A stretch of DNA of 64,000 bases from Myxococcales bacterium (GTDB taxonomy: Bacteria; Myxococcota_A; UBA9160; SZUA-336). Position numbers and translations under genes: made by a program. The stretch spans positions 8,880 to 72,879 of the forward strand of contig JABSQV010000130.1 in assembly GCA_013215565.1 (NCBI GenBank), written 5' to 3'. Shown one piece after another: positions 14,209-39,369 of this stretch. Within the stretch, counting starts at the first letter, position 1. Every line of letters starts with the position of its first letter. A model generated the notes under the pieces. The model was not told where the DNA came from. It worked only from the letters and a program-made list of their open reading frames with translations, and did not search any database.

Positions 14209-14292
14209 TGGTTGCGGTGGCGGGACTCGAACCCGCGGCCTCCAGAATATGAACCTGGCGAGCTACCAACTGCTCCACACGCGCCATCGCAG
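14209..14292 (-). tRNA. tRNA-like element, anticodon loop TTCATAT (CAT, Met-like); 5' acceptor strand does not pair
   Basis: RC reads ...TGGAGCAGTTGGTAGCTCGCCAGGTTCATATTCTGGAGGCCGCGGGTTCGAGTCCCGCCACCGCAACCA: good D arm, anticodon arm, T arm GCGGG-TTCGAGT-CCCGC and CCA, but no complement of 3' acceptor CACCGCA at the 5' side. Confidence 0.45.
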
Positions 14293-14394
14293 ATTAGCAT
14301 GGGTCTGCAGATCAGACCATGTAGGGGGCAGCGTGCCCCGAGTCGATCAGGGCATCGTTGACCGAGACCGCTGCCGGATCGGAGCTCCAAGATG

Positions 14395-14492
14395 TGGCGG
14401 GAGGTTGGGGGATTCGAACGCCCACCCCCTTTCGAGGGCCTCGACCTCTGGGTCGTGGACGGCACGCCAACACCGCTACGGACCGCCCGCCA
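14395..14492 (-). tRNA. second tRNA-like element (TTCGAAT T-loop and CCA), cloverleaf not resolvable by eye
   Basis: RC contains GGGCGTTCGAATCCCCCAACCTCCCGCCA and a 7-bp acceptor pairing TGGCGGG/CCCGCCA, palindromic TCGAGGCCCTCGA possible variable arm; fold uncertain. Confidence 0.3.
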
Positions 14493-14569
14493 CGATCCCA
14501 TCCTAACGCAGAGGCGCCCGCTCCAGCGGGATGCCGAGGCGGGCGCAACACCTAAACAGGGTGTCAGGT

Positions 14570-15547
14570 CTAGGCAGCGATCCCGACGAGGATGGCGGCA
14601 CCCAGGGTGTTGGCGAGGGTGAGCGCGCCGTCCCAGAAGATGTCGAACTCGTCGAACTGGCTCGAGGACTTCGCCAGCGGCATCACGGTGAGCGGGGTCA
14701 ACTCGGCGATGTAGCAGTAGCGGGTGTTGACCACGATGATCGCGGTCGTCACGGATCCGCTGTAGGCGGTGACCTTGGTCCCGTTGAAGGTCAGCACATC
14801 GGGCATGCCCGTCGTGGTGATTAGGGGGATCCCATCGTAGGTCCGGACGCGGAAGCCGGCCGCGATCTCGACCATGTCGTTGAACTGCTGCTGAGCCTGG
14901 AGCTGCGCGTTCAGGAGTCGCCGACCCTTGCGGCTGGCGAGGATGACGAGATCGGATCGGTTGCCCGAGCCCTTCACCGCGTCGATGGTCTCGTCCAGCT
15001 TGTCGAGGGTGAGCGCGTCACCGGTCACCGTCGTGGTCTGCAGGATGATCTGCGAGGCGGTGGCCTGGGTGAGCGTGATCAGCCCATCGAACTGGTCGGC
15101 GTCGATCGCGATGTCGCCCGTGACCAGGCCGTCCTCGAAGGTCTCGGAGAAGTCGCCGGTCCGCCCGACGATCTCACCGGCGAGCACGTCGCCGTAGGAG
15201 CGCCCGGTGGCCTGCAGCTTGCGAGTGACCTTGCCGCGAACGATCAGGGTCTTGCACGGGAGCGAGACCTGCACATACGTGCCGGTGCCCTCGGTGGGCT
15301 CCGTGGTGTCGTCGATCCACTCGGCCGAGGAGCCGGGGGTGCGCCGGTTGATGTACTCGGCGTTGCCCGACATCGGCTTGCGGGGCAAGACGGCGGCCGT
15401 TCCCAGTTCCCGATGATGGATCTGCTGGACGGTGCGGTTGATGTTCGTCTGGAGCAGGACGGTGCCAGCACCAGCGACGTTGAGGGCTCGTTCGAAGCGT
15501 TGACGGCGCGCCGGATCGAAACCTGCGAAAGCGGGGGAATTGCTCAT
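14570..15547 (-). CDS. major capsid protein
   Basis: 325-aa protein directly downstream of protease/scaffold ORF and upstream of connector; composition typical of HK97-fold capsid proteins. Confidence 0.65.
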   Translation of the reverse strand: MSNSPAFAGFDPARRQRFERALNVAGAGTVLLQTNINRTVQQIHHRELGTAAVLPRKPMSGNAEYINRRTPGSSAEWIDDTTEPTEGTGTYVQVSLPCKTLIVRGKVTRKLQATGRSYGDVLAGEIVGRTGDFSETFEDGLVTGDIAIDADQFDGLITLTQATASQIILQTTTVTGDALTLDKLDETIDAVKGSGNRSDLVILASRKGRRLLNAQLQAQQQFNDMVEIAAGFRVRTYDGIPLITTTGMPDVLTFNGTKVTAYSGSVTTAIIVVNTRYCYIAELTPLTVMPLAKSSSQFDEFDIFWDGALTLANTLGAAILVGIAA

Positions 15548-15574
15548 GATGGGTTCTCCGTAAGGAGCCCCTGG

Positions 15575-17668
15575 CTACTGCCAGGTGGCGCGCTCGTTGG
15601 GGTCGGTGATGATGCCGTCGTGCTCGGCGGCGACGAGGAGGGCGTGGAGTCCCTGCTCAAGGCGGACACGCTGCTCCCCGGCGAGGCCGGTGCGCGTGGT
15701 CAGCTCGGGAACGAGCTGCTGGGCGACGGCGGCCAGTGCCGGCGCGTCGGTGCGGGCGCGACCGATGAGGGTGTCATAGGCACCCTGGGCAGCGGGACCG
15801 TCGGGGATGGCCAGCGCGGAGCGGCCGACCCGGTTGGGGCGAGCGCACATCGCGGCGAGGGCATCCTCGGACGCCTTGGCGCGGGCGACGGCGGCGGCGG
15901 CCTGGTTGCGCGCTTCGGCGACCTGGGTGGGCGCGGCGCGGTCGGCCGGCGCGGGATCGGCAGTGCCGCTCGCCTTGAGCGCCGCGATATCGGTCAGCAT
16001 GGGAGCCAACGCCGCGTCGAGCAGGCTGCGGAAAGCCGCGAGGGTTTCTTCATTGACGGGCATCGCATGCTCCTCGGACGAATCGCCTTGATTGGCGATA
16101 GGTGAACTTGGGTCCGGTGGCGCGCTTCTCCGAGCGTCGACACCGATGGTAGCCGACTCGGCGCTCTCGCGCGAGTCGGCAGGTACAGATGTTGCCTCGG
16201 GCGCCGGGGTCACGGTGTGCTTCAGCGCATCCTGAACCGCAGGTCCGAGAGAACCGGTCGCCGCCGCTAGAACGGCCTCGGCTACTGCTTCCTCGGGAGC
16301 GTCGGCATCCCAGGAAACGATCACTCGACCGTCACGAACCTCGGAGCGGGCACAGGCCGCCTCGATCTGTTCGTAGGTGTTGTAGATCTCGCCCTCGGAC
16401 TCGGGCTCGGCGCGCGCGGCGGGGACATCGTCCCCATCCTTGTCGGCCTTGGCTCCGATCGGGGCGTCGTAGTCACCCTCCTCGGCCTCCTTGGAGAGCG
16501 ACTCATCGGCACCGGGATCGTCGCCGACCAGCTCGCCGGGCTCAAGGTCGTCCACGGTGCGGCCGCCCTTCAGGTATTGGTAGATCACCGTGTTCGGCGT
16601 GACCTCGGCCGCGACCACATGCCGCTCACCGAACTGCATCGCCACGCCGCTGTCATCGGTGACCACTGCGAGGAAGCCCTCATCGGCTTCGCCCTCGGCA
16701 ACGCGCTCGGTGAGGATGTCCCTGACCCGTTCGGCAACCGCTGGGGTGGTGAAGACTCGGGTGCCGTTGCCCAGGTGCTCGATCATCCGCTTGGCGCGGA
16801 CCTCGTAGGCGCTCCGCTCGATGGCGGTCCGCAGCTGAGTGATCGCGTTGGCGTCAGGGTTGGCCGGCGCTCGGGTGACGGCCAGGTGGTCGAGGTCGAC
16901 ACCCTGAACGATGACCCGCTCGACATCCCCGTCCTCGTTCTGGAGGATCTGCAGCTGGGTGAACCAGCCGCCGATGCTCTGCCCGATGATCTCTCCGCGC
17001 TTGACCCGCTTGAGGAGTGAGGCGGCAGCGATCTCGCTCGCATCGCGGTCGGCGACGACTTCTGGGATCGGGATGATCTCCATCGTGGCGCGCAGGAGGA
17101 AGTGGGTCTCGCTCTCGTTGTGTGGAGCTCGGACCTGATCCCCATCGACGGGGATGACCTCAGCGTGGACCGTCCGACCGATGATCTCGTCCCACTCGAT
17201 GGGTCCGCTCATGCCTCGATTGTGTCGCGGCAGGTACGGGATCCCGCCACCGACGATCATCTGACCCGCCATCATCTTGAGGGCGCGGAGGGACATCTCG
17301 GTCCCGTAGAAGTCGACCGAGGTGCTGCTGGCGATGCCTGCAACGAGCTGGCGACCGAACGCCTCTTCATCAGCGGTCCCCGGCTCCCCGGTCGCTGTCG
17401 GGTCGAGCAGGATCCCCTCGCCGTCGTCATCGATCACCCGCTCGGGGGGATCCACGAACGAGGTGCGGGCACTGGCCTCGACATCGAGCTGGACGGCGTT
17501 CGCCGAGAGTTGGATCGTCCCACCCTCAACAGATCGGGCGCTGGACTGCATCGGGACCGTGAACGGCACCCGGCAGCGGATCGTCCAATACGCCTGACCC
17601 TCGGCCGTGCGACCCGTCGGGGTGTTCCAGTCAAGACCAGCGAGGAAGGCGAGATGTGGCGCGCTCAT
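15575..17668 (-). CDS. prohead protease fused to scaffolding-like C-terminal region (697 aa)
   Basis: N-terminal block FYGTEMSLRALKMMAGQ...HNRGMSGPIEWDEIIGRTVH resembles HK97-type prohead protease; long acidic/Ala-rich helical C-terminus; position between portal and capsid. Confidence 0.55.
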   Translation of the reverse strand: MSAPHLAFLAGLDWNTPTGRTAEGQAYWTIRCRVPFTVPMQSSARSVEGGTIQLSANAVQLDVEASARTSFVDPPERVIDDDGEGILLDPTATGEPGTADEEAFGRQLVAGIASSTSVDFYGTEMSLRALKMMAGQMIVGGGIPYLPRHNRGMSGPIEWDEIIGRTVHAEVIPVDGDQVRAPHNESETHFLLRATMEIIPIPEVVADRDASEIAAASLLKRVKRGEIIGQSIGGWFTQLQILQNEDGDVERVIVQGVDLDHLAVTRAPANPDANAITQLRTAIERSAYEVRAKRMIEHLGNGTRVFTTPAVAERVRDILTERVAEGEADEGFLAVVTDDSGVAMQFGERHVVAAEVTPNTVIYQYLKGGRTVDDLEPGELVGDDPGADESLSKEAEEGDYDAPIGAKADKDGDDVPAARAEPESEGEIYNTYEQIEAACARSEVRDGRVIVSWDADAPEEAVAEAVLAAATGSLGPAVQDALKHTVTPAPEATSVPADSRESAESATIGVDARRSAPPDPSSPIANQGDSSEEHAMPVNEETLAAFRSLLDAALAPMLTDIAALKASGTADPAPADRAAPTQVAEARNQAAAAVARAKASEDALAAMCARPNRVGRSALAIPDGPAAQGAYDTLIGRARTDAPALAAVAQQLVPELTTRTGLAGEQRVRLEQGLHALLVAAEHDGIITDPNERATWQ

Positions 17669-17774
17669 GCGGACTCCCTAACCTCCGTCAAAGCGGGGTT
17701 GTGGTTGTCATCGGCAGAGGGTGCGCCTCATCGGGCGTCGTCCCGGCCAGACTAGCCCCCTCCCATAGGTCTCG

Positions 17775-20417
17775 TCAAACAGGCGGTCGGTTCCCGCCAG
17801 ACAGCGGAACGGCTCGGCCGGCGTTCACCTCGTCCCTGGTCCACATGACCAAGACACATCGGCACCGGCCTCCGCACTCGGTCGCCCCACCGGGCATCGT
17901 GGACAACTGCGACACGGGAACGAACCCTCGGGCGCCCTCGATCGAGCAGGTCGGGCACATGCGGTTGTCCCCGACGTTGACCCACTCGACCATCCACTCG
18001 ACGGCGGCGGGTTGACCGTCTGGGCCAGTCCCGGCCTCGGCCGATCCGTCGAGCAGCCCCTCGGTGAAGCTCTGGTTCGACAACTCGACCAGCTTGCCCG
18101 ACCAGTTGCTGATCCGGTGCTTCTGAGACTCCATCACCGCGCCGATCGAGAGCAAGACCTCCTCGGCGCTCGCACCAGCGGTGAGGCCGACCGGGGCCGG
18201 CTTGACCGCTCGGGCGTTGAGTGCGGATCGGGTCTGACCATCGTCGGTCACAGCTCCGACCACGGCGGCAAGACTCGCTCGCAGATCGGCGATCAGCCCG
18301 CCGGGGTCGCAGAGGAAGCGCATGGCGCGATCCCCGTAGGCGGCCGACCGGGCATCGATGTCCTCGAGGACGGGCAGGCCGGTGAAGTTCGCGGCAGCAT
18401 CGCGACCGATCCGACCCACATCGCGGTAGACCCCGCTGGTCGACAATGCCCAGTCGGTCTCCAGCTTGTCGAGCGCGCGACCGATCGCCTGGGTCAGACC
18501 CAAGGCGTCGTCGGAGTCGAAGTTGGTGGTGTACCGAGAGGAGACCGCGGTGAGCACATCTCGGGTGGCTTGGTCGTACAGAGGTTCGACCCTCCGCGCA
18601 TATTGGGCGGTCTGCTCCCACAGCTCGGAAAGCTGCAGCGTCCGAACGTTGGCGAACATCCCGCGCGGTTGCCACTCGCTCGGGAGGTCATCGATCAGCG
18701 CCCGCTGCTGGATCTCAGCGCGCACCTCGCCGGGGGCTTCATCGTCCTCGGGGTTCTCGGTCCCCGCCCCTGGGTCATCGACCGACCCTCCGCCTCCGCC
18801 ACCGCCGCCGCCGCCGCCGCTGGGAGGGGTGTCGTCATCGTCATCAGGATCTGGATCCTGGCCGAGGACGTTGGCGATGATACGCTCGGCGCTGACGAGG
18901 AGCTGGAGAGGGACTGGACCCTGAGGTGTGTCGACGGTCGCGATGTCGCCGCCACCGAGCGGGGGCTGGCCGATCTCCTTCCTCGCCTCGTTGCGAGTGA
19001 GTAGACCCTCCTGAACCAAGGCGACCAGCGTGTCGGCTACTTCCTTACGCTCGGCTGGGGTCAGCTTCTCGTCGCGGTCGAACCTGAAGCGGACGGGCGC
19101 CCCAGAGTTGCCCTGAGCGTCGAGCACCAGCGGCAAGATCCTGGCGTTGATCTTGCCCTCGATCAGTTCGAGGATCGGGTTGATGAGGTGAGAGGATCCG
19201 ACCTCAAGCTGCACCTGGCCGACGGCGCGCGGGATGTCCTCGCTCGCTCCCATCTCGACGGGCATGACCCCGAACACTCGCCAGATCGTGCGGCGAACGT
19301 CCTTGACCACGTTGATGAAATCCACGTCCTTGTTCGAGCGGCGCAGCTCGACCCACTTGGCGCCCGTGGCGGTCGGGTCAGCCGATGTGACCACGCGGAT
19401 CTTGTGGTCCTTGCCCCGCATCTTCTGCAGGTCGGCCTTGGCCGCCTCGGCCGCCATCCCGGCCAGGCCGGTGAGAACGAGAATGCCGGGAGGGATCTCG
19501 TCGGCGTCGAAGGTGAGCATGGTGTGCTCAGCCTGTCGCAGCATCGTGGTAATCTCGTTGAGGATCGTTTCGATGAGCGGCACGCCCTCGACGCCGCTGG
19601 TGTTGGCGAACATCCGCAGGTAGACGATCTGCCTGGGCGAGAAGAGGGGGTTGATGGTTGGGGTGCCATCGTGCTGAGCGATCTGCCCGAGTTGCTCCGG
19701 GGACAGCACCTGGGGAACGATCGCCCCGGTCCCGAGAAGATCTTGCTGGTAGCCCATCACCCGGCCGTGGGTGTCGACGAGAGGTCGGATGTCCCCACCT
19801 CGCAGCGCGACCAGCTCCTCAAGTTTGTCGCCGACCCCGGTTGTGATCCGACCTGTCTCCTCGTCGGTCTCCATCGAGGTGTCAAACACGTTCTCGATAA
19901 CCCCGGCATCGAAGACCAGCAGGTCGGTGATCCACTTGGTCATCACCTCTTGCCAGGTCTCACCGTCCTCGTTGGGCGCCTGCAGGAACCGCTCGGCTTG
20001 CTGGGCGGCATCGAGCGCGGACTCATACCCCGCCTCGGCCGGGTCCAACTCGGGCTTAATCATGTTGCCCCAGGTCGCGACCCGACGGACGATCGCGTCG
20101 ATGGCTGCTCGGACATCGGGTGAGCGTTGGTAGACCAGCCAGAGCTGCTCGGTCGTCAGGACGCGGTTGACCCGACCCTGCTGGTAGCTGGTGTCGAGAC
20201 CAAAGAGGGCAGACCCCGCCGACCGACCAACTCGGTCTCGGGTGTCGAGCATCGGTCGGCTGTGACCGGCTGCGCCCTGCATCCAGAGACCACCGGGCTT
20301 CTCAGCCTTCTTTCGTCGGAGTCGAACCACGCCGGTGGTGTTCGTTGCGAGGACGCGGACGGTCATGTTGTGAGCCCTCCCTGCCTGCGAAGGTAGCACG
20401 GCAGCGGGAGTGCTCAC
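17775..20417 (-). CDS. portal protein with C-terminal MuF-like head morphogenesis domain (880 aa)
   Basis: Size and position downstream of terminase region; internal D5/G11 linker (PDPDDDDDTPPSGGGGGGGGGGG); C-terminal CPTC...C cluster typical of MuF/SPP1 gp7-like domains. Confidence 0.7.
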   Translation of the reverse strand: MSTPAAVLPSQAGRAHNMTVRVLATNTTGVVRLRRKKAEKPGGLWMQGAAGHSRPMLDTRDRVGRSAGSALFGLDTSYQQGRVNRVLTTEQLWLVYQRSPDVRAAIDAIVRRVATWGNMIKPELDPAEAGYESALDAAQQAERFLQAPNEDGETWQEVMTKWITDLLVFDAGVIENVFDTSMETDEETGRITTGVGDKLEELVALRGGDIRPLVDTHGRVMGYQQDLLGTGAIVPQVLSPEQLGQIAQHDGTPTINPLFSPRQIVYLRMFANTSGVEGVPLIETILNEITTMLRQAEHTMLTFDADEIPPGILVLTGLAGMAAEAAKADLQKMRGKDHKIRVVTSADPTATGAKWVELRRSNKDVDFINVVKDVRRTIWRVFGVMPVEMGASEDIPRAVGQVQLEVGSSHLINPILELIEGKINARILPLVLDAQGNSGAPVRFRFDRDEKLTPAERKEVADTLVALVQEGLLTRNEARKEIGQPPLGGGDIATVDTPQGPVPLQLLVSAERIIANVLGQDPDPDDDDDTPPSGGGGGGGGGGGSVDDPGAGTENPEDDEAPGEVRAEIQQRALIDDLPSEWQPRGMFANVRTLQLSELWEQTAQYARRVEPLYDQATRDVLTAVSSRYTTNFDSDDALGLTQAIGRALDKLETDWALSTSGVYRDVGRIGRDAAANFTGLPVLEDIDARSAAYGDRAMRFLCDPGGLIADLRASLAAVVGAVTDDGQTRSALNARAVKPAPVGLTAGASAEEVLLSIGAVMESQKHRISNWSGKLVELSNQSFTEGLLDGSAEAGTGPDGQPAAVEWMVEWVNVGDNRMCPTCSIEGARGFVPVSQLSTMPGGATECGGRCRCVLVMWTRDEVNAGRAVPLSGGNRPPV

Positions 20418-20441
20418 ACGGAGAGGCGCCGATGTCGAGGA

Positions 20442-22445: not shown

Positions 22446-22499
22446 GTAAACCACGATCACCCAACTTCTCGCCCATCAGCTCGACTGATACCAAGCAGC

Positions 22500-25107: not shown

Positions 25108-25629
25108 ATGGGCGACCAGGACAGGTACACGGGGTGGGACTCGATCCTTGGTGCGTTGAAAGGGTTCGGTCGGTCGGCCGAGGCTGCGGGCAAGTCTGTG
25201 GACAAGCTGGCGAGGGCAGCATCGCCAGCCGCCTCCCCGGTCGAGCAGATCCGCAGGGCGCTCGGTGGTGGGTCCGAGCTGCGCAAGATCGTGGACAGCG
25301 CGGGGTGGAGTTTCTGGGAGCGAGGCGAGCGGCCTGAGAAGCTGCGGCACTCCGACGTGTCGATGCAGACCAACGCGGCGGGAGACCGCAGCGGGATCTG
25401 GGTCGGCAAGTTGCTGATCGCATCCTTCTCGGTGTCGTGTTTCGAGACCGAGAAGGGCATGATCGTCATCGACTGGGAGACCGTGTCGCTTGAGGTCATG
25501 CCGGGGGCGACCGAAGCCAGCGAGCGATCCGCTGCCGTCATGGCCGACTCGCTCAGGCGGATCGGCATGACCGAGGAACAGATCACAGCCACGCTCTTGG
25601 AGCACGGCATCATTTGGGAGCAAGAATGA
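25108..25629 (+). CDS. hypothetical protein
   Basis: 173-aa ORF, 2-nt spacer from upstream gene. Confidence 0.5.
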   Translation: MGDQDRYTGWDSILGALKGFGRSAEAAGKSVDKLARAASPAASPVEQIRRALGGGSELRKIVDSAGWSFWERGERPEKLRHSDVSMQTNAAGDRSGIWVGKLLIASFSVSCFETEKGMIVIDWETVSLEVMPGATEASERSAAVMADSLRRIGMTEEQITATLLEHGIIWEQE

Positions 25630-26168
25630 GAGCATTGATGGATCAGGTCCGCGAATTCCACACGGTGGGTCAACTCGGGATCGGGGAGCCCTGGACGGTC
25701 ATCGACGATGGCGACGAGGCGGCCGAGATCGCTGCCGTCGCCGAGGTGCTCGATGGGGAGGCCAGGCTGCTGGCGCGCATCGGCAAGGGCACCCTGGCCC
25801 TGAGGGCGCGGCTGATGGTCGAGGAGTTGGCCGAGACCCTGGACGCGATGGCTCGGGGAGATGTCGTCGAGGTCGCTGACGGCCTGGCCGATCTGGCCTA
25901 TGTCACCGCTGGTACGGCCATCGAGTTTGGGATCCCGCTCGACTTGGTGAGCGACGAGGTTCAACGGTCCAATATGGCTAAGTTCCCGCCCTGTTCCTCA
26001 TGCCTCGGAACGGGCACCGGGGATGTTGGAGGGCTGACCCCTTGTCACGCCGAGGGGTGTTGCAACGGAAACGTCCGCGTCCTCGACGAGAACGGCAAGG
26101 TGCAGAAACCCGAAGGGTGGACCCCGCCCGATATCGCTGGGGTGATGGAGGCGAGCCGTGGGATCTGA
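25626..26168 (+). CDS. MazG-like nucleoside triphosphate pyrophosphohydrolase
   Basis: MRALMDQVREFHTVGQ...EELAETLDAMARGD...ADGLADLAYVTAGTAIEFG matches MazG/HisE-type NTP-PPase helices; C-terminal Cys cluster; ATGA overlap with upstream. Confidence 0.65.
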   Translation: MRALMDQVREFHTVGQLGIGEPWTVIDDGDEAAEIAAVAEVLDGEARLLARIGKGTLALRARLMVEELAETLDAMARGDVVEVADGLADLAYVTAGTAIEFGIPLDLVSDEVQRSNMAKFPPCSSCLGTGTGDVGGLTPCHAEGCCNGNVRVLDENGKVQKPEGWTPPDIAGVMEASRGI

Positions 26169-27212: not shown

Positions 27213-28946
27213 TCAGAGCGCCGAGTACGAGCCACCCTGTTGCAAGAGGTCGTAGGCGATCCGGTCGTAGACATCGGCCAGGCGGAAGTGGTCGGCGGCG
27301 CTGCCTTCATGCCAGACGATCCGGCCCTTGTCCTCGTTGAGCACTCTGACCGGGGCGCGCATCTGATCGCTCCATCCGAGCACGGTGAACACGTCGGCGG
27401 GGAACGTGCGGCGCCTCTCCTGAATGTCGGCGAACGACACATCGAACACGGCCGTCCTGTCCACCCTGACTTCTTGGATCCGGTACTTGAGTTGCATCCC
27501 GTAAGGCAGCGCACCAACTCGCGGTGTCGGGAAGAACCGACAGAGCCAGACCTGGGCGCCCCCGTTGTTGATGAAGTAGTCCCTCAGCTCTTGCGCCTTG
27601 TGGGTCTCGGGCTGGGCGTCGATCACGCATGACTTGACGTGGTAGCGGATCAGCGCATCCTGCACCTCGTCGAAGGTGCGGCACGCCTGCACCAGCACAG
27701 CTCGGCGCACCGGGGGCAGGCTCGCGTCGGGCTTGCCGTTCTGGCCCTTGGCGGCCTCGATGACGCTGATGGACAGGTTCATCACCGAGCCCACATCGAT
27801 CCCCGCGGTCACGGTCAGCCGTCGATATTGGTCCCCGCCCGAGTAGTCGAGGTTGTCCCCGATGGCGGCGGCCTCCAGCATCGACTGGTCCAGCCTCGCC
27901 CCGGAGTACTCGAATGGGATCCCCAGCACCGAGCAGTAGAACGCGGCGAGCTTGGTCGGGTCGCCCTGCGCCTTGAGCCACTCCAGGTACAGGTCGGTGA
28001 GGCGCTGAGACAGGACATCGAGTCGCGACATCCAATAGCCGCGTGTCGAGCCCTCCCCCTCGGCGACCCAGAGTGCTCCAGCAGCGACCCGATCGAAGGG
28101 CTCGGTGCATCGCCGACACACGGGTCGGATGTCGGGGCCGCCCTCCCAGTTGCCCTGGACGTGGTTGTGGGCCTGGGCGCCCGCCCACCCCTTGTGGTCG
28201 CGAGGCAACCACTGCCCAGTGCCCTCGTCCCTTCGGACCACGTTGATGAACCAGTCCACGGGCTGGCGCTCGCCACAGTGTCCGCACTGCATGTACCAGC
28301 GACGGCGATCGCTCTCATCGTAGAGGCGCGAGATCCCGACGTTGGGCAGCGTCGGGTTCCCCAGTCGGATCATCTGGGGGTAGGGGCTCTCTCTGAGTCG
28401 GTCCTTGGCCTTGGCGAGGTTCTCTGGATCGCAGTGGTCGAACTCGTCCACGATCAGCAGGTCGGCCGAGAACTCCACGAAGTCGCCGGGGGTGTTCGAT
28501 CCGAGGAACAGCATCGAGCCCGCGCCGAACTTCTTGAGCTTCAGGCTCCCCGTCCTCGCCTTCTTGGCCTTTTCGTTGCCCATGGTCATGCCGCCGGGGC
28601 ACCGCTCACGGTATGCGGGCACGAATCGCAGGAGGGGATCCACCCGCTGCTTCACGAACCGATCTCGGATCGAGTAGGTCGGAAGCACATAGGCAACGAT
28701 GCGACCTTGCCACCCAGCCTTCTGAAGCGCGATCTGGACCGACAGTTCGGACATCCCTGTCTGCACGGCCTTGCGGATCACCCAGTCGTTGCAGTTGGCG
28801 GCATCGGCGTACAACTCGATGAGGTACGGCTTGTCGACGAACGACATTGGCGTGCCGCGAGTCGATTGATGATGCGACAGCGCGAGACCCAGGACGGGAT
28901 GCTCGGCAGAGAGCTTCGCCATCGTCGAGTGGTACTGGTCGAGCAT
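27213..28946 (-). CDS. terminase large subunit (lambda GpA-like)
   Basis: KAVQTGMS Walker-A variant resembling lambda gpA KSARVGYS; LLIVDEFDH Walker B; 577 aa; first gene of leftward late operon. Confidence 0.8.
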   Translation of the reverse strand: MLDQYHSTMAKLSAEHPVLGLALSHHQSTRGTPMSFVDKPYLIELYADAANCNDWVIRKAVQTGMSELSVQIALQKAGWQGRIVAYVLPTYSIRDRFVKQRVDPLLRFVPAYRERCPGGMTMGNEKAKKARTGSLKLKKFGAGSMLFLGSNTPGDFVEFSADLLIVDEFDHCDPENLAKAKDRLRESPYPQMIRLGNPTLPNVGISRLYDESDRRRWYMQCGHCGERQPVDWFINVVRRDEGTGQWLPRDHKGWAGAQAHNHVQGNWEGGPDIRPVCRRCTEPFDRVAAGALWVAEGEGSTRGYWMSRLDVLSQRLTDLYLEWLKAQGDPTKLAAFYCSVLGIPFEYSGARLDQSMLEAAAIGDNLDYSGGDQYRRLTVTAGIDVGSVMNLSISVIEAAKGQNGKPDASLPPVRRAVLVQACRTFDEVQDALIRYHVKSCVIDAQPETHKAQELRDYFINNGGAQVWLCRFFPTPRVGALPYGMQLKYRIQEVRVDRTAVFDVSFADIQERRRTFPADVFTVLGWSDQMRAPVRVLNEDKGRIVWHEGSAADHFRLADVYDRIAYDLLQQGGSYSAL

Positions 28947-29138: not shown

Positions 29139-29735
29139 GTGTCGAAGGCAGCGAAGGCAGAGCCAGTCGAGGAAGACCAGGCCGCGAAGTGGGTCAAACG
29201 AGAGTTGCTTGAACCCTGGGTCGGCAACCCCCGCGACAATGAGAAGGCGGTCGACCCGGTGGCGTTGTCGATCGAGCGGTTCGGGTTCGGAGCTCCGATC
29301 GTCGCGTGGAAGCCCGAGACCCCCATGGTTATCGCTGGGCACACTCGGCTCAAGGCCGCGACCAAGCTGGGCCTCGCCGAGGTACCTGTCCGCTGGATGT
29401 CGCACCTGACCGAAGCAGAGGCGAAGGCACTCGCCCTGGCCGACAATCGACTCGGTGAGTTGGCCGACTGGAACTTCGAAGGGCTGCAGGGAGAGATCCA
29501 GGCCCTCGCTGAGCAGGATGTCGACCTGTCGGGTCTGGGTTGGGCCGGCAACGAGTTGGAGGTGCTCAAAGGCAACCTCGAACAGTTCCTCCCGAAGCAG
29601 AAGCCGAAGCCGCCGAAGTCGTTGGAGTCTGAGCACTACATCGAGATCCGCTGCACCAACGAGCGACTGAATGAGATCCAGGATCAACTGCTCGCCTGGG
29701 ACGGTGAGGAAGACATCGAGGTACAGATCGCATGA
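29139..29735 (+). CDS. ParB-like nuclease domain protein
   Basis: GTG at 29139 with AGGAGG SD; NPR...GHTRLKAA ParB/Srx motifs. Confidence 0.6.
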   Translation: MSKAAKAEPVEEDQAAKWVKRELLEPWVGNPRDNEKAVDPVALSIERFGFGAPIVAWKPETPMVIAGHTRLKAATKLGLAEVPVRWMSHLTEAEAKALALADNRLGELADWNFEGLQGEIQALAEQDVDLSGLGWAGNELEVLKGNLEQFLPKQKPKPPKSLESEHYIEIRCTNERLNEIQDQLLAWDGEEDIEVQIA

Positions 29736-30580
29736 CCACCCCAGGCACCGAGCGCAACGTCAAGCAGGCCGAGAGGTTCGTCCAAGAGCACGATGGTCGA
29801 GTGACCTTCCAAGGCAAGTGCGAGGGCGAGGCGTGGCAGAAGCAGCTCCGAGATCGCTACCTGCATGAGGGCGCGCCGCCCGTCGACTTGAAGCTCAAGC
29901 GAGCCCGCGTGATCCCCGTCACCCGTCGACTCGCCGAACACATCATCTTCAAGTACGAGTGGCTCGGCACGATGGTGTCGACGGGTCGCCACTACGGGAT
30001 CTTCTTTGGTCCCTACTGCGCTGGGGTGACCTGCTCAGGCGTTGGATGCACTGGGGGCACCAACACGGCGAAGATGTTCGGCATGGAGACTCAGGAGATG
30101 TTGACCTTCGCCAGAGGGGCATGCGTCCACTGGGCACCAACGGGGGCCAACTCCAAGTTGGTGTCGTGGTCCTGCCGTCACCTCGCCGAGCACGGTCGGC
30201 TGACCGTCGCCTACGCAGATACCGACGCTGGGGAGATCGGGACAATCTACCAGGCGTGCGGTTGGACCTACATCGGCAAGGGCAGCTCGACGCGGCAGTG
30301 GGTCAGTCCCGAGGGCAAGATCCTCGATCAGAAGACCCCCGGCAACCTCGTTGAGCAGCGGGGGTTCCCGTCGAACAGCGGCGGCTGGCTCAAAGGTCAG
30401 CGCGCCCAGTGGGTTCAGGCGATGAGGGACGCGGGCTGGGTCGAGCAGATCACGAACCCGAAACACCGGTACGTTAAGGTGCTCCGGAAGCGGGACAAGG
30501 AACTGCATGCCCGGATCGCGGACATGGCGCAGCCCTACCCGAAGCGAGTGGGCACCTCGGCGGCCGCCGCCTCTCAGTAG
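29732..30580 (+). CDS. hypothetical protein (282 aa)
   Basis: Overlapping start with ParB gene; Cys/Gly-rich central region. Confidence 0.45.
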   Translation: MTTPGTERNVKQAERFVQEHDGRVTFQGKCEGEAWQKQLRDRYLHEGAPPVDLKLKRARVIPVTRRLAEHIIFKYEWLGTMVSTGRHYGIFFGPYCAGVTCSGVGCTGGTNTAKMFGMETQEMLTFARGACVHWAPTGANSKLVSWSCRHLAEHGRLTVAYADTDAGEIGTIYQACGWTYIGKGSSTRQWVSPEGKILDQKTPGNLVEQRGFPSNSGGWLKGQRAQWVQAMRDAGWVEQITNPKHRYVKVLRKRDKELHARIADMAQPYPKRVGTSAAAASQ

Positions 30581-32349: not shown

Positions 32350-32371
32350 GACGGCCTCCCAGACCTTCGAT

Positions 32372-32686: not shown

Positions 32687-32832
32687 ATCTGCTTGGTATC
32701 AGTATCGACGATCAGCGATCGACCACCTCGCAGGACGACGGCGACGATGCTGGTCCGCTCGCTCCACTCGACCACCCGGGAAACGAACGTGTTGGGATAC
32801 GCCTCGGCGACCACCTCAAGCGCGATGGTCAT
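32662..32832 (-). CDS. small hypothetical protein
   Basis: Protein-like part MTIALEVVAEAYPNTFVSRVVEWSERTSIVAVVLRGG of ORF 32662..33153. Confidence 0.3.
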   Translation of the reverse strand: MTIALEVVAEAYPNTFVSRVVEWSERTSIVAVVLRGGRSLIVDTDTKQMWPPRSGP

Positions 32833-32855
32833 CGGGGGCTTGGCATTGTCAGCCC

Positions 32856-32958
32856 TCACGGGAGCCGCTCGAGGACGTAGACCATCGAGTCGAACAGGAC
32901 GAACAGGGCGAGGGCGGAGACCAAGATGGCCATGGTGATCTTGTAGGCGCGGGTCATG
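32856..32958 (-). CDS. 33-aa single-pass membrane peptide
   Basis: ATG overlapping stop of NTase gene (cATGAtg); MTRAYKITMAILVSALALFVLFDSMVYVLERLP. Confidence 0.35.
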
Positions 32959-33646: not shown

Positions 33647-34119
33647 GACTGGGGCTCGCGGTCGACGGGGATGTCGGGAGGGCTGTGGTTGAAGTTGAAG
33701 TGCCCCGGCGGGTCGAGGTAGTCGAGGCGACGGGCGGCCGCCTTGAGGGACTTGGCTGGGGTGCGCTTGATCAGGTCAATGATGACGGCCTTGGCGAGAT
33801 CGGTGTCCTGCTCCATCGCGTCGGGCCACCCGCCAGGGCAGCACTCGGTGTTGATGCAGTGGGCGGCACCCGCGTCCAGCATCTCCTCGACCAGGGCGAG
33901 GAGAGCCTTCTTGGTGACGGCGCGGCTCATCGGAGTGCCAGCCTTGCCGCGACGCAGCCAGTCCCAGACCTCGTTCGCTCGACCGGTGAACACGATCGTG
34001 CCGTCGGGCTCGCAGATGTGGTGCTTGCCCGTCGACTCGGAGTCGGTAGCTCGGTAGTGGAACAGGCCGAGGATCGACAGGACGTCGTTCAGGGTGTAGC
34101 TGGGATCAGCCTTCAACAT
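33643..34119 (-). CDS. hypothetical protein
   Basis: Protein-like from MLKADPSYTLND; Cys pairs HHICEP and CINTECCPGG. Confidence 0.45.
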   Translation of the reverse strand: MLKADPSYTLNDVLSILGLFHYRATDSESTGKHHICEPDGTIVFTGRANEVWDWLRRGKAGTPMSRAVTKKALLALVEEMLDAGAAHCINTECCPGGWPDAMEQDTDLAKAVIIDLIKRTPAKSLKAAARRLDYLDPPGHFNFNHSPPDIPVDREPQS

Positions 34120-34318
34120 CGGACACCTCGTAGGGCTCGACAGCGCCGCAGGGGCATCCGTCATCGGTGATGGTCTCGTGGCACTGGGTGCAGACGACCG
34201 ACTCGGCGAGCAGCTCAAGGCGCTGGTCCTCATCGAATCGGATGTGGACCGACTGGTCACAGTCGCCGTAGTCGTAGGAGCCGCAGATGTCGCAGCCGTA
34301 GGGATTGGGGTTGAGCAT
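34106..34318 (-). CDS. small Cys-rich protein
   Basis: MLNPNPYGCDICGSYDYGDCDQ...CTQCHETITDDGCPCG. Confidence 0.45.
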   Translation of the reverse strand: MLNPNPYGCDICGSYDYGDCDQSVHIRFDEDQRLELLAESVVCTQCHETITDDGCPCGAVEPYEVSDVEG

Positions 34319-34674
34319 TAGAGGCAGTCTCCGCCGAGGATGAAGGACTCGATCGTGGCGCTGCCGTACCCGTCGCCCTCAAAGGTCATGATGGCGCGGC
34401 CTTGACGCCGACGGAACTCGCGCTTGACGACCTTGAGGTCGGCCTGGACATCGGCGAACGTGTAGGTCTCGGTCTTCTCATCGTAGGAGGTCACGACGGT
34501 CGTGGTGACGCCCTCGGCGACACCCGAATCACGCGCGGCAGCAACGGCCGCGTTGTTGTCTTCGGACACGTAGTTGATGGCGGCGAGCCAGGCGGTCTCG
34601 ACCGACTTGAACACGCCGAGGTTCCCGTCTTCGGAGCCGCGAAGTATATAGACTGCTTTGTTGCGCTTCGACAT
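34318..34674 (-). CDS. hypothetical protein
   Basis: ATG at 34674 (MSKRNKAVYILRG) abutting conserved repeat; repeat-embedded ATG at ~34701 is in frame (MDLPTERHT-MSKR). Confidence 0.5.
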   Translation of the reverse strand: MSKRNKAVYILRGSEDGNLGVFKSVETAWLAAINYVSEDNNAAVAAARDSGVAEGVTTTVVTSYDEKTETYTFADVQADLKVVKREFRRRQGRAIMTFEGDGYGSATIESFILGGDCL

Positions 34675-34738
34675 TGTGTGCCTCTCTGTTGGTAGGTCCA
34701 TCCTATCGGAGTACCCATCTCTTGTATACCGGCAAACC
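34675..34738 (-). repeat. start-associated repeat, type A
   Basis: core plus GTATACCGGCAAACC. Confidence 0.8.
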
Positions 34739-34903
34739 GAGGTTTCTCGGTGCCTTTCTCGGATTCTAGCGACCGTTGGTCTCGACGTAGAAGGAGCAGA
34801 GGCCGCCGTCGATGCTCGGGTGGAAGTTCCAGCCCTCGTCATCCCGCTTGTCGATCGTGCCGACTTCGATGCCGTCTAGGTCGTTTCCTCGATTTAGGCA
34901 GCG

Positions 34904-35342
34904 GAACCCCAAACCCTCACCTGGCCGCTGAACCCTCGGGTCTCGAACAGGTCGCGCCTGGACCGCAGAGTGCGAGTCAGCGACTCGCGGCGGGCGGACT
35001 CGATGTCCAACTCGACCATGATCTCTTTGACGGTCATCGAACCGACACGGCCCAGCAACTCAACGACGCGGGCGCGGAGGGTGCCCGACTTGGCGCGCTT
35101 CTTCGGCTCGGGCGTGCCCTTGCCGAACTGCTTGCCGGCCCCGGTCAGAACCCAACCTGGTAGATGAAGTGACCGTCAATGAGCTTGGCTTCGGAGAGCT
35201 GCTCGATGACCGACAGGCTGTGCTTGAAGACGATTCCGTCCGTCGGGTGGTACAGCTCGGCGCTGCCCGTCTGGCCGCCGTCGGGGAGGCCCAGCCATCT
35301 TGCAGGAGGGCGAGGGCTGTGCGGGCTGCTTTCGTGAGGGTC
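34904..35342 (-). CDS. winged-helix DNA-binding protein, interrupted by two apparent frameshifts
   Basis: ATG at ~35342 abutting repeat gives MTLTKAARTALALLQDGW. High-GC3 coding then continues in -1 frame (GGQTGSAELYHPTDGIVFKHSLSVIEQLSEAKLIDGHFIYQVGF). It continues again in the third frame (GKGTPEPKKRAKSGTLRARVVELLGRVGSMTVKEIMVELDIESARRESLTRTLRSRRDLFE) ending ~34904. Shifts occur at C/G runs. Confidence 0.3.
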
Positions 35343-35405
35343 ATTGTCTGCTCTCTGTTGGTAGGTCCATCCTACTGGTCTTCCAGTGGAATGGATACCG
35401 GCAAA
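35343..35405 (-). repeat. start-associated repeat, type A
   Basis: core plus GGATACCGGCAAACC. Confidence 0.8.
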
Positions 35406-35557
35406 CCTGACTTTCTCGGTCAGACCTCGATTAGTGCGTGCCCCTCGATCTGCAGCCCTGCATCGGCGAGCGCCTTCGCCCAGAGGCTCGCCCTGCCGCG
35501 GCCTGCTCACCGGGGGCCAGCTCGCTCAGAGCTGACCGATGCACGTACCGCGAGAAC

Positions 35558-35739
35558 CCGACCTGCTTCACAGCTCGGCGAGCGCCCGCCGCCGCTTTGG
35601 GCGGAGGGTGCTTCCCCCAACGATGTCCGGCCCGCCCTCGGGGATCTTCATGCGATCCCTGCGCTTGGGATCAACCTCGCGCTGGGACAGCTTGCTCGCG
35701 GTGTCGGGCACGTTACCCCTGGCCTTGTCCTCACTTTTC
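35558..35739 (-). CDS. small basic protein
   Basis: MPKKSEDKARGNVPDTASKLSQREVDPKRRDRMKIPEGGPDIVGGSTLRPKRRRALAEL; not in ORF table because under 60 aa threshold region. Confidence 0.35.
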
Positions 35740-36125
35740 TTCGGCATCGGATTCCTCTTGGCACTCCGAGCATATCGGATCGGAGTCGTCTTCGGGAGGG
35801 TCGACCATCGTGCCGCACTCGATGCACTCCACGCGCATCGGGATCCCGTCGAGCGCGTCGGCCAGCCCCAAGGGGGACGAGACCTCGCCGAGCAGCACCC
35901 CGCCGGCCTGGGCCAGGTAGCCCGTGACCTTCAAGAACCCGTCGGCCTCGTCGGGACCGCTGAAGCCCCGCCAGCTCGTTCGGGCCGGGTAGGCATCGGT
36001 GACTGTGCCGTCCTCTTCCTCCTCGAGGACGATGCACATCCCGAAGAGGTGCAGCGAGCGGTTCACCCACCACAGCAGTCCCGAGTCCCTGAATGCCTCC
36101 CACGGCTTGCGTTCGATGTTTCCGC

Positions 36126-36129
<4 letters not shown>
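35731..36129 (-). CDS. hypothetical protein with C-terminal zinc ribbon
   Basis: Start MSGNIERKPWEAF; VECIECG...CSEC. Confidence 0.45.
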
Positions 36130-36458
<329 letters not shown>

Positions 36459-36628
36459 CTCCTCACGGAAGCAGCCGGGGTGGCTGGGAGACAGTCACCC
36501 GCGCACCCCGACCTCGTTCTGGTGTTCGAGCGGGAAGTCGTCCGCCCGAGGAGAGGCGTGCCCTCTCCTCGCCGAGTTGTTGCGAACAATGGCGAAGCCC
36601 GCGACCCACATCGGCCAGGTCATCGGCA

Positions 36629-37326
36629 TCATCCCTCAGAGCCCTGGGCCACCGACTCGCAGACCGACTGGATCTGCTTGTCGAGGTCAGCGTGGGCTGT
36701 GCCCTCAAGCGCAGCCTTGAACGTCCCGCTCTCGGTCACCTCGCCGAGAGGACCGCTATCGACCATGTTCGCCCTCACGGCGATGTAGGCATGACCGTCG
36801 AAGGCGAGCAACTCGGCGAGTTTGCGCAGCAGGTGCTCCTCGGCACCGGGGGGCAGGGTCTGCAGGACGTAGATGCAGATCACGGTGTCGTACCGCTCAC
36901 GGTGGAGACCCTTGTCTCGGTGATTCGGATCCCAGCCTCGGCGGTTGCGCCTTTGGAGAGCAGCCCGTGGGTCGCGTTCTCCATCCACATGCGTTCGATG
37001 ACCTCATCGGTCAGGTCGTCCGAGATCGTGTCCCAGACCAGGACGCGGACATCGCCCCAGACGGTCGCCCTGATCGGCTCGTAGATCAGCCCAGTCCAAC
37101 TCGCCTCGAACTGCACTGGCGGCGGGGGCTCGATGGTGAAGGCGCCGGTCGCCTCGATGGCCCTGATCTTCTCGAACAGGAGCATCAACTCGATCGAGCG
37201 GATGCAGACCATCCACTCACAAGCCACCATCTCGTCGTCGGTCTTGTAGACCCGGTACGCCTTGGCGTTGAGGAGCAGCCCGACCACGTTGATCGGGAGT
37301 GGGATCGCTGGCAGCAGGCTCATCAA
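36629..37326 (-). CDS. SAM-dependent methyltransferase-like protein, apparent frameshift near 36890
   Basis: C-terminal frame YDTVICIYVLQTLPPGAEEHLLRKLAELLAFDGHAYIAV equals class I MTase motif; N-terminal part in ORF 36880..37326; frames overlap 36880-36988. Confidence 0.35.
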
Positions 37327-37622
37327 TGTGCCAACCCCTTGACCACTTCGGTGTGACCCGCCTCGGCCTGCTCGCGGGTGCAGTAGCGGCGACCGATGTG
37401 ATCGAACTCATCGCTCTCACCGAATACCATGGTCTCGTAGAGCACGGGTGCCGCCCCGCGTTGGAAGGCATGATCGATCCCGAGAAACACGGTCGAGACC
37501 ACGACCTCGGGCGCGACTTCAGTCCGAGCTACGGTTCGGCGATCAACATCGTTGAACCAAGCCGCCCACTTGAGCGCGTCGGGCTCGGCAACAGGAACGC
37601 CGTCCACCTCGATGTAGTACAT
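37323..37622 (-). CDS. hypothetical protein
   Basis: Protein-like from MYYIEVDGVPVAEPDALKW. Confidence 0.45.
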   Translation of the reverse strand: MYYIEVDGVPVAEPDALKWAAWFNDVDRRTVARTEVAPEVVVSTVFLGIDHAFQRGAAPVLYETMVFGESDEFDHIGRRYCTREQAEAGHTEVVKGLAH

Positions 37623-37624
37623 GC

Positions 37625-38266
37625 TCACGACGCCGCCCCAGCCCAGCCGGCGTCGTCGCCGTCGGTCGGCTCGGTCGACTTGGTGGCGGCCGAGAACGTG
37701 CCGTCGGTGAACTCCGAGAGCGGTCGGCAGTGGATCCCGCTGGGGCCTGAGTAGACCACGCCGGGACATCCGTCGATCGGGTTGTCGCGGCACTCGATGG
37801 TGCAGGGACCGATGACCGTGTAGGTCTCGCCATCGGAGTGCGTCCACTCGCTGCCCTGTGCGGGCTGTTCGCCGACCGTCCTGAACAGCCGCAGTCCCTC
37901 ACGGACCTTCCGTCGGAGCTCCGACGCGGTGTCGTCCCGAGTGAGGTCGCCATGACTCGGGCCAGGCACGACGCTGCCGTCCTTCATGCAGAACAGGCCG
38001 TCCCAGAACACGTCCTGTGTGCCGTCGCGATGCCTCACGGCGACACACGGGGTGAGCTGGTACAGGCAGACGGCGCCGACGCTCTTGGCGAACTTGCCGA
38101 CCAGCGTGCCCATCTTGGTCGCGCCCTCCTCGATGGGTTGCCCCGACGCGATCCGTGAGGCCGCGGTGGACATCTCACGGTGGTCACGGAACTCCTCGGG
38201 CACGTCCTCGATCGGGACGCCGACGTGCTTGGAGAAGATCTCGCTGAGATTGGTGACGTTCTGCAT
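37625..38266 (-). CDS. hypothetical protein (213 aa)
   Basis: Protein-like composition. Confidence 0.5.
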   Translation of the reverse strand: MQNVTNLSEIFSKHVGVPIEDVPEEFRDHREMSTAASRIASGQPIEEGATKMGTLVGKFAKSVGAVCLYQLTPCVAVRHRDGTQDVFWDGLFCMKDGSVVPGPSHGDLTRDDTASELRRKVREGLRLFRTVGEQPAQGSEWTHSDGETYTVIGPCTIECRDNPIDGCPGVVYSGPSGIHCRPLSEFTDGTFSAATKSTEPTDGDDAGWAGAAS

Positions 38267-38311
38267 GCTGCCTCCTGCGCCCAGGTATCGGTCAGAGCGC
38301 CTCGCCGTGAG

Positions 38312-38506
38312 TCAGAAGGGCGCGACGGTCTTGGGCGGGTCGAACGGAACGGCGTCGGCCCAGAGGCGATCGAACTCACGGCGGGTGCAGCGAGGGCACT
38401 GGTACAGCTTGAAGGACGACGTGAACCCGATCGCCCTCTCGGCGAGGCAGTGGCGCCCACAGGCGTAGCAGGCATCGATCTTGGTCAGGGTGTCGAGCGG
38501 GATCAT
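38312..38506 (-). CDS. small zinc-ribbon protein
   Basis: CYAC...C...CPRC. Confidence 0.45.
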   Translation of the reverse strand: MIPLDTLTKIDACYACGRHCLAERAIGFTSSFKLYQCPRCTRREFDRLWADAVPFDPPKTVAPF

Positions 38507-38519
38507 CGGCTCTCTGTAA

Positions 38520-38756
38520 TCAGGCCGGCTCGACGACGGTGATGATCAGCTTCACCGGGACGGCAGGGATCTTGGCTGTCTCCTTGAACTCCCAAGCGTT
38601 GTTGGTGCGGTTGGCCGCGCTGGTCGCCTGACCGCGCTTGTTGAAGATCTGGGCACGCTCGAACGGCACCCACTTGGTCGAGCCGCTGTTCTTGTTCAGA
38701 TACCAGAGCCCGTCCTCGTTGCGGACAGCCCACGCCTCGCGAGTTGGTGCGCTCAT
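38520..38756 (-). CDS. hypothetical protein
   Basis: Protein-like from MSAPTREAWAVRNEDGLWYL. Confidence 0.4.
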   Translation of the reverse strand: MSAPTREAWAVRNEDGLWYLNKNSGSTKWVPFERAQIFNKRGQATSAANRTNNAWEFKETAKIPAVPVKLIITVVEPA

Positions 38757-38929
38757 TCGACGATCCCTCTTCGAACACTCTCGGTGCCCATCCAGTGTCC
38801 AGACATCCGAGCGAGGGCGAGCAGGGCGACGGCGCCGAGCCCGTAGAAGTAGAAGCCCAGCACCAACGTCATGAAGTAGGCCGTGTCGACAAGCCAGGGT
38901 GTCCATTCATCTCGATCGTCGCTGCTCAT
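38753..38929 (-). CDS. small membrane protein
   Basis: MSSDDRDEWTPWLVDTAYFMTLVLGFYFYGLGAVALLALA. Confidence 0.35.
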   Translation of the reverse strand: MSSDDRDEWTPWLVDTAYFMTLVLGFYFYGLGAVALLALARMSGHWMGTESVRRGIVE

Positions 38930-39285
38930 CCGATGATCGTCCCGCCCCTCAGCAGGGCCTCGCCGATGGGCGGCAGCGGCACGGGCTTCGGCTTGCCGCC
39001 GACCAGTCGCCACACCTCGTACCGTGAGCCATCGCGGCGCTGATGCAGATCGACCTGGATGCCGCAGCGTGGGATCTGCGCCTGGCCCATGGGGCTGGCC
39101 TGGGCGACCTCGAGGAGATGGCGTAGGGTCTTGGTGTCGGCGATGAAGATCCGGTCACCGGGGTCGTCTGGGCCGCCTGTGGTCACCCTGCGAAGCAGCT
39201 CATCGGTCCCCGGCTTCTGCAGCGGGTTGGGGTTCACCTTGGGTGCGATCTGCGGATGCAGGATCCCCTGTTCGTCGCTGCCCAT
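38926..39285 (-). CDS. hypothetical protein
   Basis: 119-aa ORF. Confidence 0.4.
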   Translation of the reverse strand: MGSDEQGILHPQIAPKVNPNPLQKPGTDELLRRVTTGGPDDPGDRIFIADTKTLRHLLEVAQASPMGQAQIPRCGIQVDLHQRRDGSRYEVWRLVGGKPKPVPLPPIGEALLRGGTIIG

Positions 39286-39307
39286 GTTCTGCTTCCTCTC
39301 TATGAAG

Positions 39308-39369
39308 TGGTGGGTCCAGCAGGACTCGAACCTGCGACTCTCGGCTTAAAAGGCCGGTGCTCTAAACTC
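39308..39369 (-). tRNA. tRNA-Lys(UUU)-like 3' fragment (D-stem 3' half through CCA); no complementary 5' acceptor strand
   Basis: RC reads TTAGAGCACCGGCCTTTTAAGCCGAGAGTCGCAGGTTCGAGTCCTGCTGGACCCACCA. Anticodon loop CTTTTAA, T arm GCAGG-TTCGAGT-CCTGC, CCA present. Upstream lacks GGGTCCA and a full D arm. Confidence 0.4.

Follow-up and report, generated by a model that had tools for sequence, protein, structure and literature searches.

Non-canonical tRNA gene fragments have been discussed previously (PMC9897764). The closest described counterparts of the elements considered here are the phage transfer RNA (tRNA) genes, pseudogenes, and fragments of the class covered by Rfam model RF00005, with which they share recognisable T arms, anticodon arms, and CCA ends. 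The elements lie in 64,000 nt of contig JABSQV010000130.1, deposited as Myxococcales bacterium and here called the window, to which all positions refer unless otherwise stated. The source of this DNA is a GC-rich (~65%) tailed-phage genome. There are three elements, El1, El2, and El3, all of them on the minus strand in intergenic gaps, running in the same direction as the flanking phage genes, and all retaining a T loop and an encoded CCA. They are read here, with moderate confidence, as the remains of phage tRNA genes that have lost their canonical form to different degrees.

14285..14209, minus strand: El1, an initiator-type tRNA-Met(CAU) gene (Rfam tRNA model; alignment with phage tRNA-Met genes)
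14394..14493, minus strand: El2, a putative degenerate type-II (Ser-like) tRNA-derived element (fold, BLAST, and inverted repeat)
39308..39364, minus strand: El3, the 3' 57 nt of a tRNA-Lys(UUU) gene (Rfam tRNA model; comparison with intact tRNA-Lys genes)

An initial annotation made from the letters of the sequence had proposed tRNA-like sequences at these three sites, and this is upheld, with all three on the minus strand. A permissive Rfam scan of the whole window, using a tRNA model with a gathering threshold of 29 bits, returns no tRNA-like hit beyond El1 and El3. ARAGORN makes no tRNA call at El1, El2, or El3 at default and 90% thresholds; at 80%, or in its intron or mitochondrial modes, only shifted or poorly paired folds are reported. 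Full-length canonical tRNAs, the outcome against which the initial annotation had set its proposal, are not what a tRNA finder sees at these sites: none is called by ARAGORN, and in the Rfam alignments El1 has an indel and El3 is without a D arm. No further tRNA is found in the rest of the genome, and there are no hits for transfer-messenger RNA (tmRNA), standard or permuted, with the Rfam tmRNA models and the ARAGORN tmRNA search. Promoter and terminator scans at the elements find nothing.

The 376 nt gap that holds El2 and El1 is identical in 6 assemblies from different samples, and El3 is identical in 10. The flanking sequences differ among assemblies by a few bases per several kb. Since the elements are identical across independent assemblies, assembly error does not account for their defects. 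Within this nearly clonal population the elements are invariant, so that polymorphism between strains says nothing about selection on them.

El1 is recognised by the Rfam tRNA model at 14284..14213 with 53.8 bits (E 8.8e-9), its D, anticodon, and T arms aligning without gaps; intact relatives of El1 score 59.5-69.5 bits on the same model. No lesion is present in the D arm, the 5 bp anticodon stem with its 7 nt CAU loop, the T arm with UUCGA, A72, or A73, and the encoded CCA is at 14211..14209. The initial annotation had described El1 as lacking a complementary 5' acceptor strand. However, the strand exists (CGCGUG or GCGCGUG, 14284/3..14278) and is one base short when compared to CGCGGGG in the homologues. 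It faces a 3' strand of CACCGCA-A-CCA, where the homologues have CCCCGCA followed by A73 and CCA. In either register the acceptor consists of 6 pairs and a one-base bulge, rather than the canonical 7 bp stem with strands of equal length. The suspicion, voiced at the outset, that folding by hand had failed is therefore justified for El1, where the strand is present with a one-base indel, and for El1 only.

The tRNA-Met genes most similar to El1 are those of Clavibacter phage CN1A, Pseudomonas phage PaMx74, Stenotrophomonas phage vB_Sm_QDWS359, and Erythrobacter phage vB_EliS_R6L, all called by ARAGORN. El1 aligns with them over its full length and is like them in its D arm, CAU loop, T arm, and ...GCA-ACCA 3' end; the difference is in the acceptor, where one G is absent from the 5' strand of El1. 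An exact-pattern scan of viral contigs for El1 gives a match in CN1A alone. These four phages are unrelated to the window phage at the DNA level, and their tRNA-Met genes adjoin the terminase gene, whereas El1 is located after the capsid gene. Positions 6:67 of El1 form a U-A pair that is seen in no homologue, the homologues being paired there by other bases (A-U, G-C). This retention of the pair with different bases indicates that the acceptor stem was under selection before the deletion occurred.

Bacterial initiator tRNAs are recognised by a C1.A72 mismatch, the A11:U24 pair, and a run of three G-C pairs at the base of the anticodon stem. In El1, A11:U24 is present, as is C1.A72 when the acceptor is read in the register of its homologues. 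Its anticodon stem reads A29-U41, G30-C40, G31.U39, thus one of the three initiator G-C pairs is present. The C1.A72 pattern is common to El1 and the tRNA-Met genes of PaMx74, vB_Sm_QDWS359, and vB_EliS_R6L, while CN1A has U1-A72 instead.

Three of these phage tRNA-Met genes are clear (60-69.5 bits, called by ARAGORN) yet unannotated in GenBank: those of CN1A (L001:2495-2571), PaMx74 (L002:2495-2570), and R6L (L004:2511-2587). The large terminase gene precedes it in PaMx74 and R6L, whereas in CN1A the tRNA gene is just upstream of the terminase gene. In vB_Sm_QDWS359, an unannotated permuted tmRNA (L003:2959-3253, Rfam 108.7 bits) is found just downstream of the tRNA-fMet and tRNA-Ile genes of the phage.

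It is possible, although the lesser chance, that El1 alone is a working Met or initiator tRNA in which the asymmetry of the acceptor is tolerated, with El2 and El3 being relics. Every other tRNA feature of El1 is intact, including A11:U24, the T loop, the 7 nt CAU loop, A73, and CCA, its score is well above threshold and about 6 bits under that of the weakest intact relative, and the same sequence is carried by all six assemblies. On the other side, ARAGORN rejects El1 even at 90% thresholds. Its minimum-energy fold retains the D, anticodon, and T arms but has the acceptor bulged or shifted into the U8/G9 linker, and with one of three G-C pairs it may not be a proper initiator.

El3 consists of the D-loop sequence UAGAGC, the anticodon arm, the T arm, the 3' acceptor strand UGGACCC, A73, and CCA (39310..39308). 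It is without a 5' acceptor strand and without the 5' strand of the D stem. The Rfam tRNA hit (39369..39311) has 34.2 bits (E 0.0022) and is obtained by leaving out the D arm and admitting non-standard acceptor pairs, whereas the intact tRNA-Lys counterparts score 69.8-70.7 bits. ARAGORN sees El3 only in mitochondrial mode, with 4 of 7 acceptor pairs. Alone, El3 does not fold into a cloverleaf and folds no better than shuffled sequences. In exact-pattern scans its 23 nt anticodon arm is identical to that of the intact tRNA-Lys(UUU) of two large unrelated viral contigs. The 25 nt of the T arm and 3' acceptor strand are identical to tRNAs of seven unrelated bacteria. Intact tRNA-Lys genes begin GGGNCNNUAGCUCAGUUGG(C/U)AGAGC, where the window has ...CCAGAGGACAGAGUU--UAGAGC. 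The similarity of El3 to intact genes therefore ends in the D loop, as the window sequence departs from them upstream of UAGAGC. Judged by this alignment, El3 is a clean 5' truncation. The initial annotation had described a canonical T arm, anticodon arm, and CCA with no 5' acceptor strand; both the Rfam model and the comparison with intact tRNA-Lys genes agree with this. Two genes border El3.

39362..39751, minus strand: a 129 amino acid ORFan gene upstream of El3, the last codons of which lead into the D-loop remnant of El3, where its UAG stop (39364..39362) is located (open reading frame list)
38926..39285, minus strand: a 119 amino acid gene downstream of El3, with its start codon 22 nt past the CCA

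The ORFan has a GC content at third codon positions of 0.79, and gene calling recovers it in each assembly that covers its full length. Among 5.8 billion proteins only its own cluster is found. For the genes flanking El3, both searches for relatives came back empty.

A 3' tRNA fragment ending in CCA is also the appearance of the attP and attB cores that are located in tRNA genes. The initial annotation had likened the 3' halves to attP cores, although it saw no integrase in the window. For El3, and possibly the others, such a core or scar would be the 3' part of a host tRNA-Lys, in a phage that integrates into that gene or descends from one that did. At 57 nt, El3 is within the length range of tRNA attachment cores. 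It is a clean 3' fragment to the CCA, and two of the bacterial genomes found through its 25 nt T arm and acceptor sequence (L033 and L036) contain the same kind of 3' fragment, as duplicated border fragments that show what integration scars look like. However, no integrase or recombinase family is found among 39 predicted proteins of the window compared with Pfam or PHROGs, which cover nearly all of the larger ones, and none is present in the precomputed Pfam annotation of the remaining 14 kb of the contig. The breakpoint in El3 is in the D loop, rather than in the anticodon or T loop. A host was sought through exact 25-mer matches in one genome for each of 185,579 species. The T arm and acceptor 25-mer is present in 7 genomes from scattered, unrelated phyla, which is uninformative for identification of a host, and none of these shares the anticodon arm of El3; no species genome carries both. 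With El1 at full length and El2 scrambled, neither fits an attP core. An attachment-site origin is thus highly improbable, and the proposed likeness to attP is not supported for the elements.

El2 is the least secure of the three identifications and appears to be a heavily altered type-II tRNA. Its parts are as follows.

14493..14482 / 14405..14394, minus strand: closing helix of 12 nt with one mismatch (inverted repeat)
14476..14459, minus strand: D-like hairpin (fold)
14458..14439, minus strand: hairpin in the place of the anticodon arm, with an 8 bp stem and a CAGA tetraloop (fold)
14438..14425, minus strand: variable-arm hairpin, CCCUC-GAAA-GGGGG (fold)
14424..14406, minus strand: T arm, GGGCG-UUCGAAU-CCCCC, with a C.C mismatch (fold)

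Read as a tRNA, El2 is GGGCGGU.../...ACCUCCC-G-CCA. The acceptor helix described initially is real, although its coordinates were off by one (14394-14405 / 14482-14493). As for the accompanying statement that there is no clear cloverleaf, four hairpins are present in tRNA order as a cloverleaf-like fold, but this fold is not better than those of shuffled sequences. The closing helix is not significant, since helices of similar quality turn up in 7% of random 376-mers and in 12% of the tiles of the window. No Rfam family matches El2 significantly. The best match, and the only one in its clan, is tRNA-Sec, with 16.7 bits and an E of 1.4 (threshold 47). There is no 7 nt anticodon loop, the loop there being the 4 nt CAGA, and ARAGORN at 80% thresholds gives only a poor, differently folded 'Leu'. 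Exact-pattern scans of viral contigs for El2 give no hits.

In a BLAST search, the variable arm, T arm, and 3' strand of El2 align over 46 nt at 84.8% (E 6e-4) with a tRNA-Ser-like sequence of Pseudoalteromonas phage J2-1 that is unannotated in GenBank. Vibrio phages give weaker matches, in their homologous tRNA-Ser(UGA) genes, and some of these records annotate the gene. Compared with the phage tRNA-Ser genes, the anticodon loop of El2 is short by 3 nt, a G-to-C change breaks a T-stem pair, and there is one extra base before the 3' acceptor strand. The acceptor also has a C.U mismatch. The tRNA-Ser(UGA) genes of J2-1 and of Vibrio phages phiKT1024 and Chester (L048-L050) have an unusually long D region; all three are missed by ARAGORN, and only that of Chester is above the Rfam threshold (40.1 bits). 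A 9 nt direct repeat common to El1 and El2 was estimated to be what chance would produce in a region of this size.

El2 might instead not be tRNA-derived in function, being either a chance GC-rich structure with a T-loop-like motif or a Y-RNA-like mimic similar to Deinococcus Yrn1, but this is improbable. The shuffling result (z = -0.55), the Rfam E-value, and the frequency of comparable helices in the controls speak for chance. Against chance are the match to the variable and T arms of a phage tRNA-Ser and the presence of a G-CCA end beside a genuine tRNA gene. El2 is like the Y RNAs with tRNA-like domains (YrlA and Yrn1) in having a tRNA-like fold, no usable anticodon loop, and paired ends. 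In Yrn1 the anticodon-like arm has a shortened loop, the ends are paired into the protein-binding stem, and the Ro60 contact motif is GGUCCGA (PMC4201824). The 5' strand of El2 contains GGUCCGU, a 6 of 7 match that was noticed post hoc, and a relative of the window phage encodes Ro60 together with Y-RNA-like elements. However, the arm order of YrlA is permuted (T, acceptor-like, D) while that of El2 is the normal tRNA order, no YrlA or Y_RNA hit is found at E<=10 in a search of 471 nt, and the window phage genome has no Ro60 homologue. It is unlikely that El2 is a Yrn1-like Y RNA.

The relative with Ro60 (L052, ENA WANG18-1_SAMN08389276 scaffold_41) has 72% capsid identity to the window phage. 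Its region L052:2340-4553 holds a Ro60 orthologue (TROVE and vWA_Ro60) and, in the roughly 590 nt upstream of that gene, a weak YrlA match (2660-2761, 26.7 bits), a stem-bulge or Y-like match (2451-2519), and a second T-arm-like GCGGGTTCGAATCCCGC. A 526 amino acid VWA-domain protein of the window was considered as a Ro60 and rejected, having no similarity to the Ro60 of the relative.

El2 and El1 are together in the gap between the major capsid protein gene and the next gene of the operon, with the following features around them.

14570..15547, minus strand: major capsid protein gene of the SU10_MCP / HK97 type, the upstream neighbour of El2 (PHROG major head protein, PF17236)
14514..14546, minus strand: GC-rich hairpin with an 8 bp stem, GCGCCCGC/GCGGGCGC, just past the capsid gene stop (inverted repeat; alignment with relatives)
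14286..14393, minus strand: 108 nt spacer between El2 and El1, with two short hairpins recognised by eye (GGGGCACGCUGCCCC; CAUGGUCUG..CAGACCCAUG)
13795..14193, minus strand: a 132 amino acid gene directly downstream of El1, with an AGGAGG ribosome-binding site 5-10 nt past the El1 CCA (sequence and gene calls)

The spacer matches no Rfam family at E<=10. Relatives of the phage were identified through the capsid protein in IMG/VR, JGI metagenomes, and the set of 5.8 billion proteins. Downstream of the capsid gene in these relatives, which have 29-85% capsid identity, there is no tRNA call or tRNA-family hit. They carry a hairpin of different sequence at the same place after the capsid gene. In the three in which the gap was read (L005, L051, and L052) it is approximately 120-130 nt, with the hairpin followed by the ribosome-binding site of the next gene. 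The El2-El1 cassette, absent from all of the relatives, looks like a lineage-specific insert of approximately 290 nt between the capsid-gene hairpin and that ribosome-binding site.

The positions of the elements raise another explanation, in which El1 (bulged and initiator-like), El2 (Ser-like with no anticodon and closed by a long stem), and El3 (a tRNA-Lys with no 5' part) are kept as tRNA mimics that do not decode. They could serve as processing marks within polycistronic transcripts, separating the capsid message from the downstream genes. They could also be decoys or substrates for host enzymes directed at tRNA, such as the anticodon nucleases whose targets are tRNA-Lys(UUU) or initiator tRNA. 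Phage tRNA-Lys(UUU) genes can counter host defences that cleave tRNA, which provides a lead for this explanation rather than a test of it. Each element runs in the direction of its operon and stops 15-22 nt short of the next start codon, just in front of the corresponding ribosome-binding site, although such tight spacing is normal for any intergenic insert in a phage. T loops and encoded CCA are present in all three, and what is left of El1 and El3 is free of lesions. The location of El2 and El1 directly after the capsid-gene hairpin is a plausible site of differential mRNA processing. However, the relatives are without the elements, thus there is no evidence of conservation, and the folds of El3 and El2 are no better than those of shuffled sequences. 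An RNA without an acceptor helix, such as El3, would not be a substrate for RNase P. Overall, a retained mimic function is rather improbable. If true, the elements would be a set of exapted tRNA relics, not junk. The initial annotation had also listed tRNA-like regulatory or processing signals among its alternatives; nothing here supports processing signals.

Of the alternatives it listed, decaying phage tRNAs fit best. The phage, or the donors of its inserts, would once have carried genes for tRNA-Met, a Ser-like tRNA, and tRNA-Lys, all now in the course of being lost. El1 would have undergone a single-base deletion in its 5' acceptor strand and be otherwise intact; it is probably still transcribed within the late operon. 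El2 would have been a Ser-like tRNA with a long variable arm, its anticodon loop later shortened by 3 nt, and a T-stem mismatch, an extra base before the 3' acceptor strand, and the acceptor C.U mismatch acquired; it cannot decode. In El3 the first ~19 nt of a tRNA-Lys(UUU) gene would have been replaced in a rearrangement that joined it to an ORFan gene, leaving a sequence that cannot form an acceptor stem or D arm. The lesions would then represent loss of function, and the ancestors would have been working phage tRNAs.

Several points weigh against this history. The parts that are retained are remarkably clean, with one lesion in El1 and none in the 57 nt of El3, which is unlike uniform neutral decay; the losses would have to be very recent, or selection would still have to act on the 3' parts. 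There is a fair chance that El1 functions as a tRNA despite the bulge in its acceptor. The absence of the cassette from the relatives suggests a recent gain, in which case its defects are surprisingly early. For El2, the fold does not exceed that of shuffled sequence, as described above, and one modest BLAST match is the only statistical support for tRNA ancestry. As it stands, ordinary gene decay suffices and nothing demands more.

The window corresponds to bases 8850-72849 of a 78,129 bp metagenome scaffold in ENA. The genome is apparently closed at approximately 78 kb, since two other contigs that cover the 14 kb outside the window have common gene content at their far ends. A marine study (PMC11208148) cites sequencing run SRR7632647 (PRJNA482655), from the same project as the phage genome. 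No near-identical DNA was found among GenBank phages. The principal phage genes recognised, apart from that of the capsid, are listed below.

572-4759, minus strand: tape-measure protein (Pfam/PHROGs scans)
17775-20417, minus strand: portal (Pfam/PHROGs scans)
27213-28946, minus strand: gpA-type large terminase (Pfam/PHROGs scans)
59229-62309, plus strand: primase / DnaB-like helicase fusion, split by a LAGLIDADG homing-endonuclease (intein-like) segment at about residues 647-717

Other genes of the window are of some interest. A Mom-family protein (29732-30580, plus strand; PF25680, E 1.2e-22) suggests that the phage DNA carries base modification. A MazG-like pyrophosphohydrolase domain is encoded at 25614-26168 on the plus strand (PRA-PH, E 2.4e-14). 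At 47429-51617 on the minus strand is a cluster of three genes, for the 526 amino acid VWA-domain protein, a MoxR-type AAA ATPase (bpMoxR, E 5e-57), and a DUF6744 protein. Within the structural module, proteins of 697 amino acids (15575-17668, minus strand) and 922 amino acids (8166-10934, minus strand) have no significant family match, the sole hit of the former being a sub-threshold match to prohead protease (18.2 bits).

Should the elements prove to be expressed and stable, they would provide a compact case in which to study the loss or re-use of tRNA genes in viruses. The three are also a clean example of a phage with no canonical tRNA in its whole complement. Their chief value is to annotation: two of the elements would be listed as tRNA genes by covariance models and none by ARAGORN, and neither result reveals that these are a bulged tRNA and a 5'-truncated fragment. 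In this respect El1 and El3 behave as phage tRNA fragments do, scoring above the covariance model threshold though non-canonical. It is in their context that the elements differ from the usual phage tRNA sets: all three of the tRNA-like loci are defective, there is no intact tRNA, and two of the three are together in the middle of the head-gene operon.

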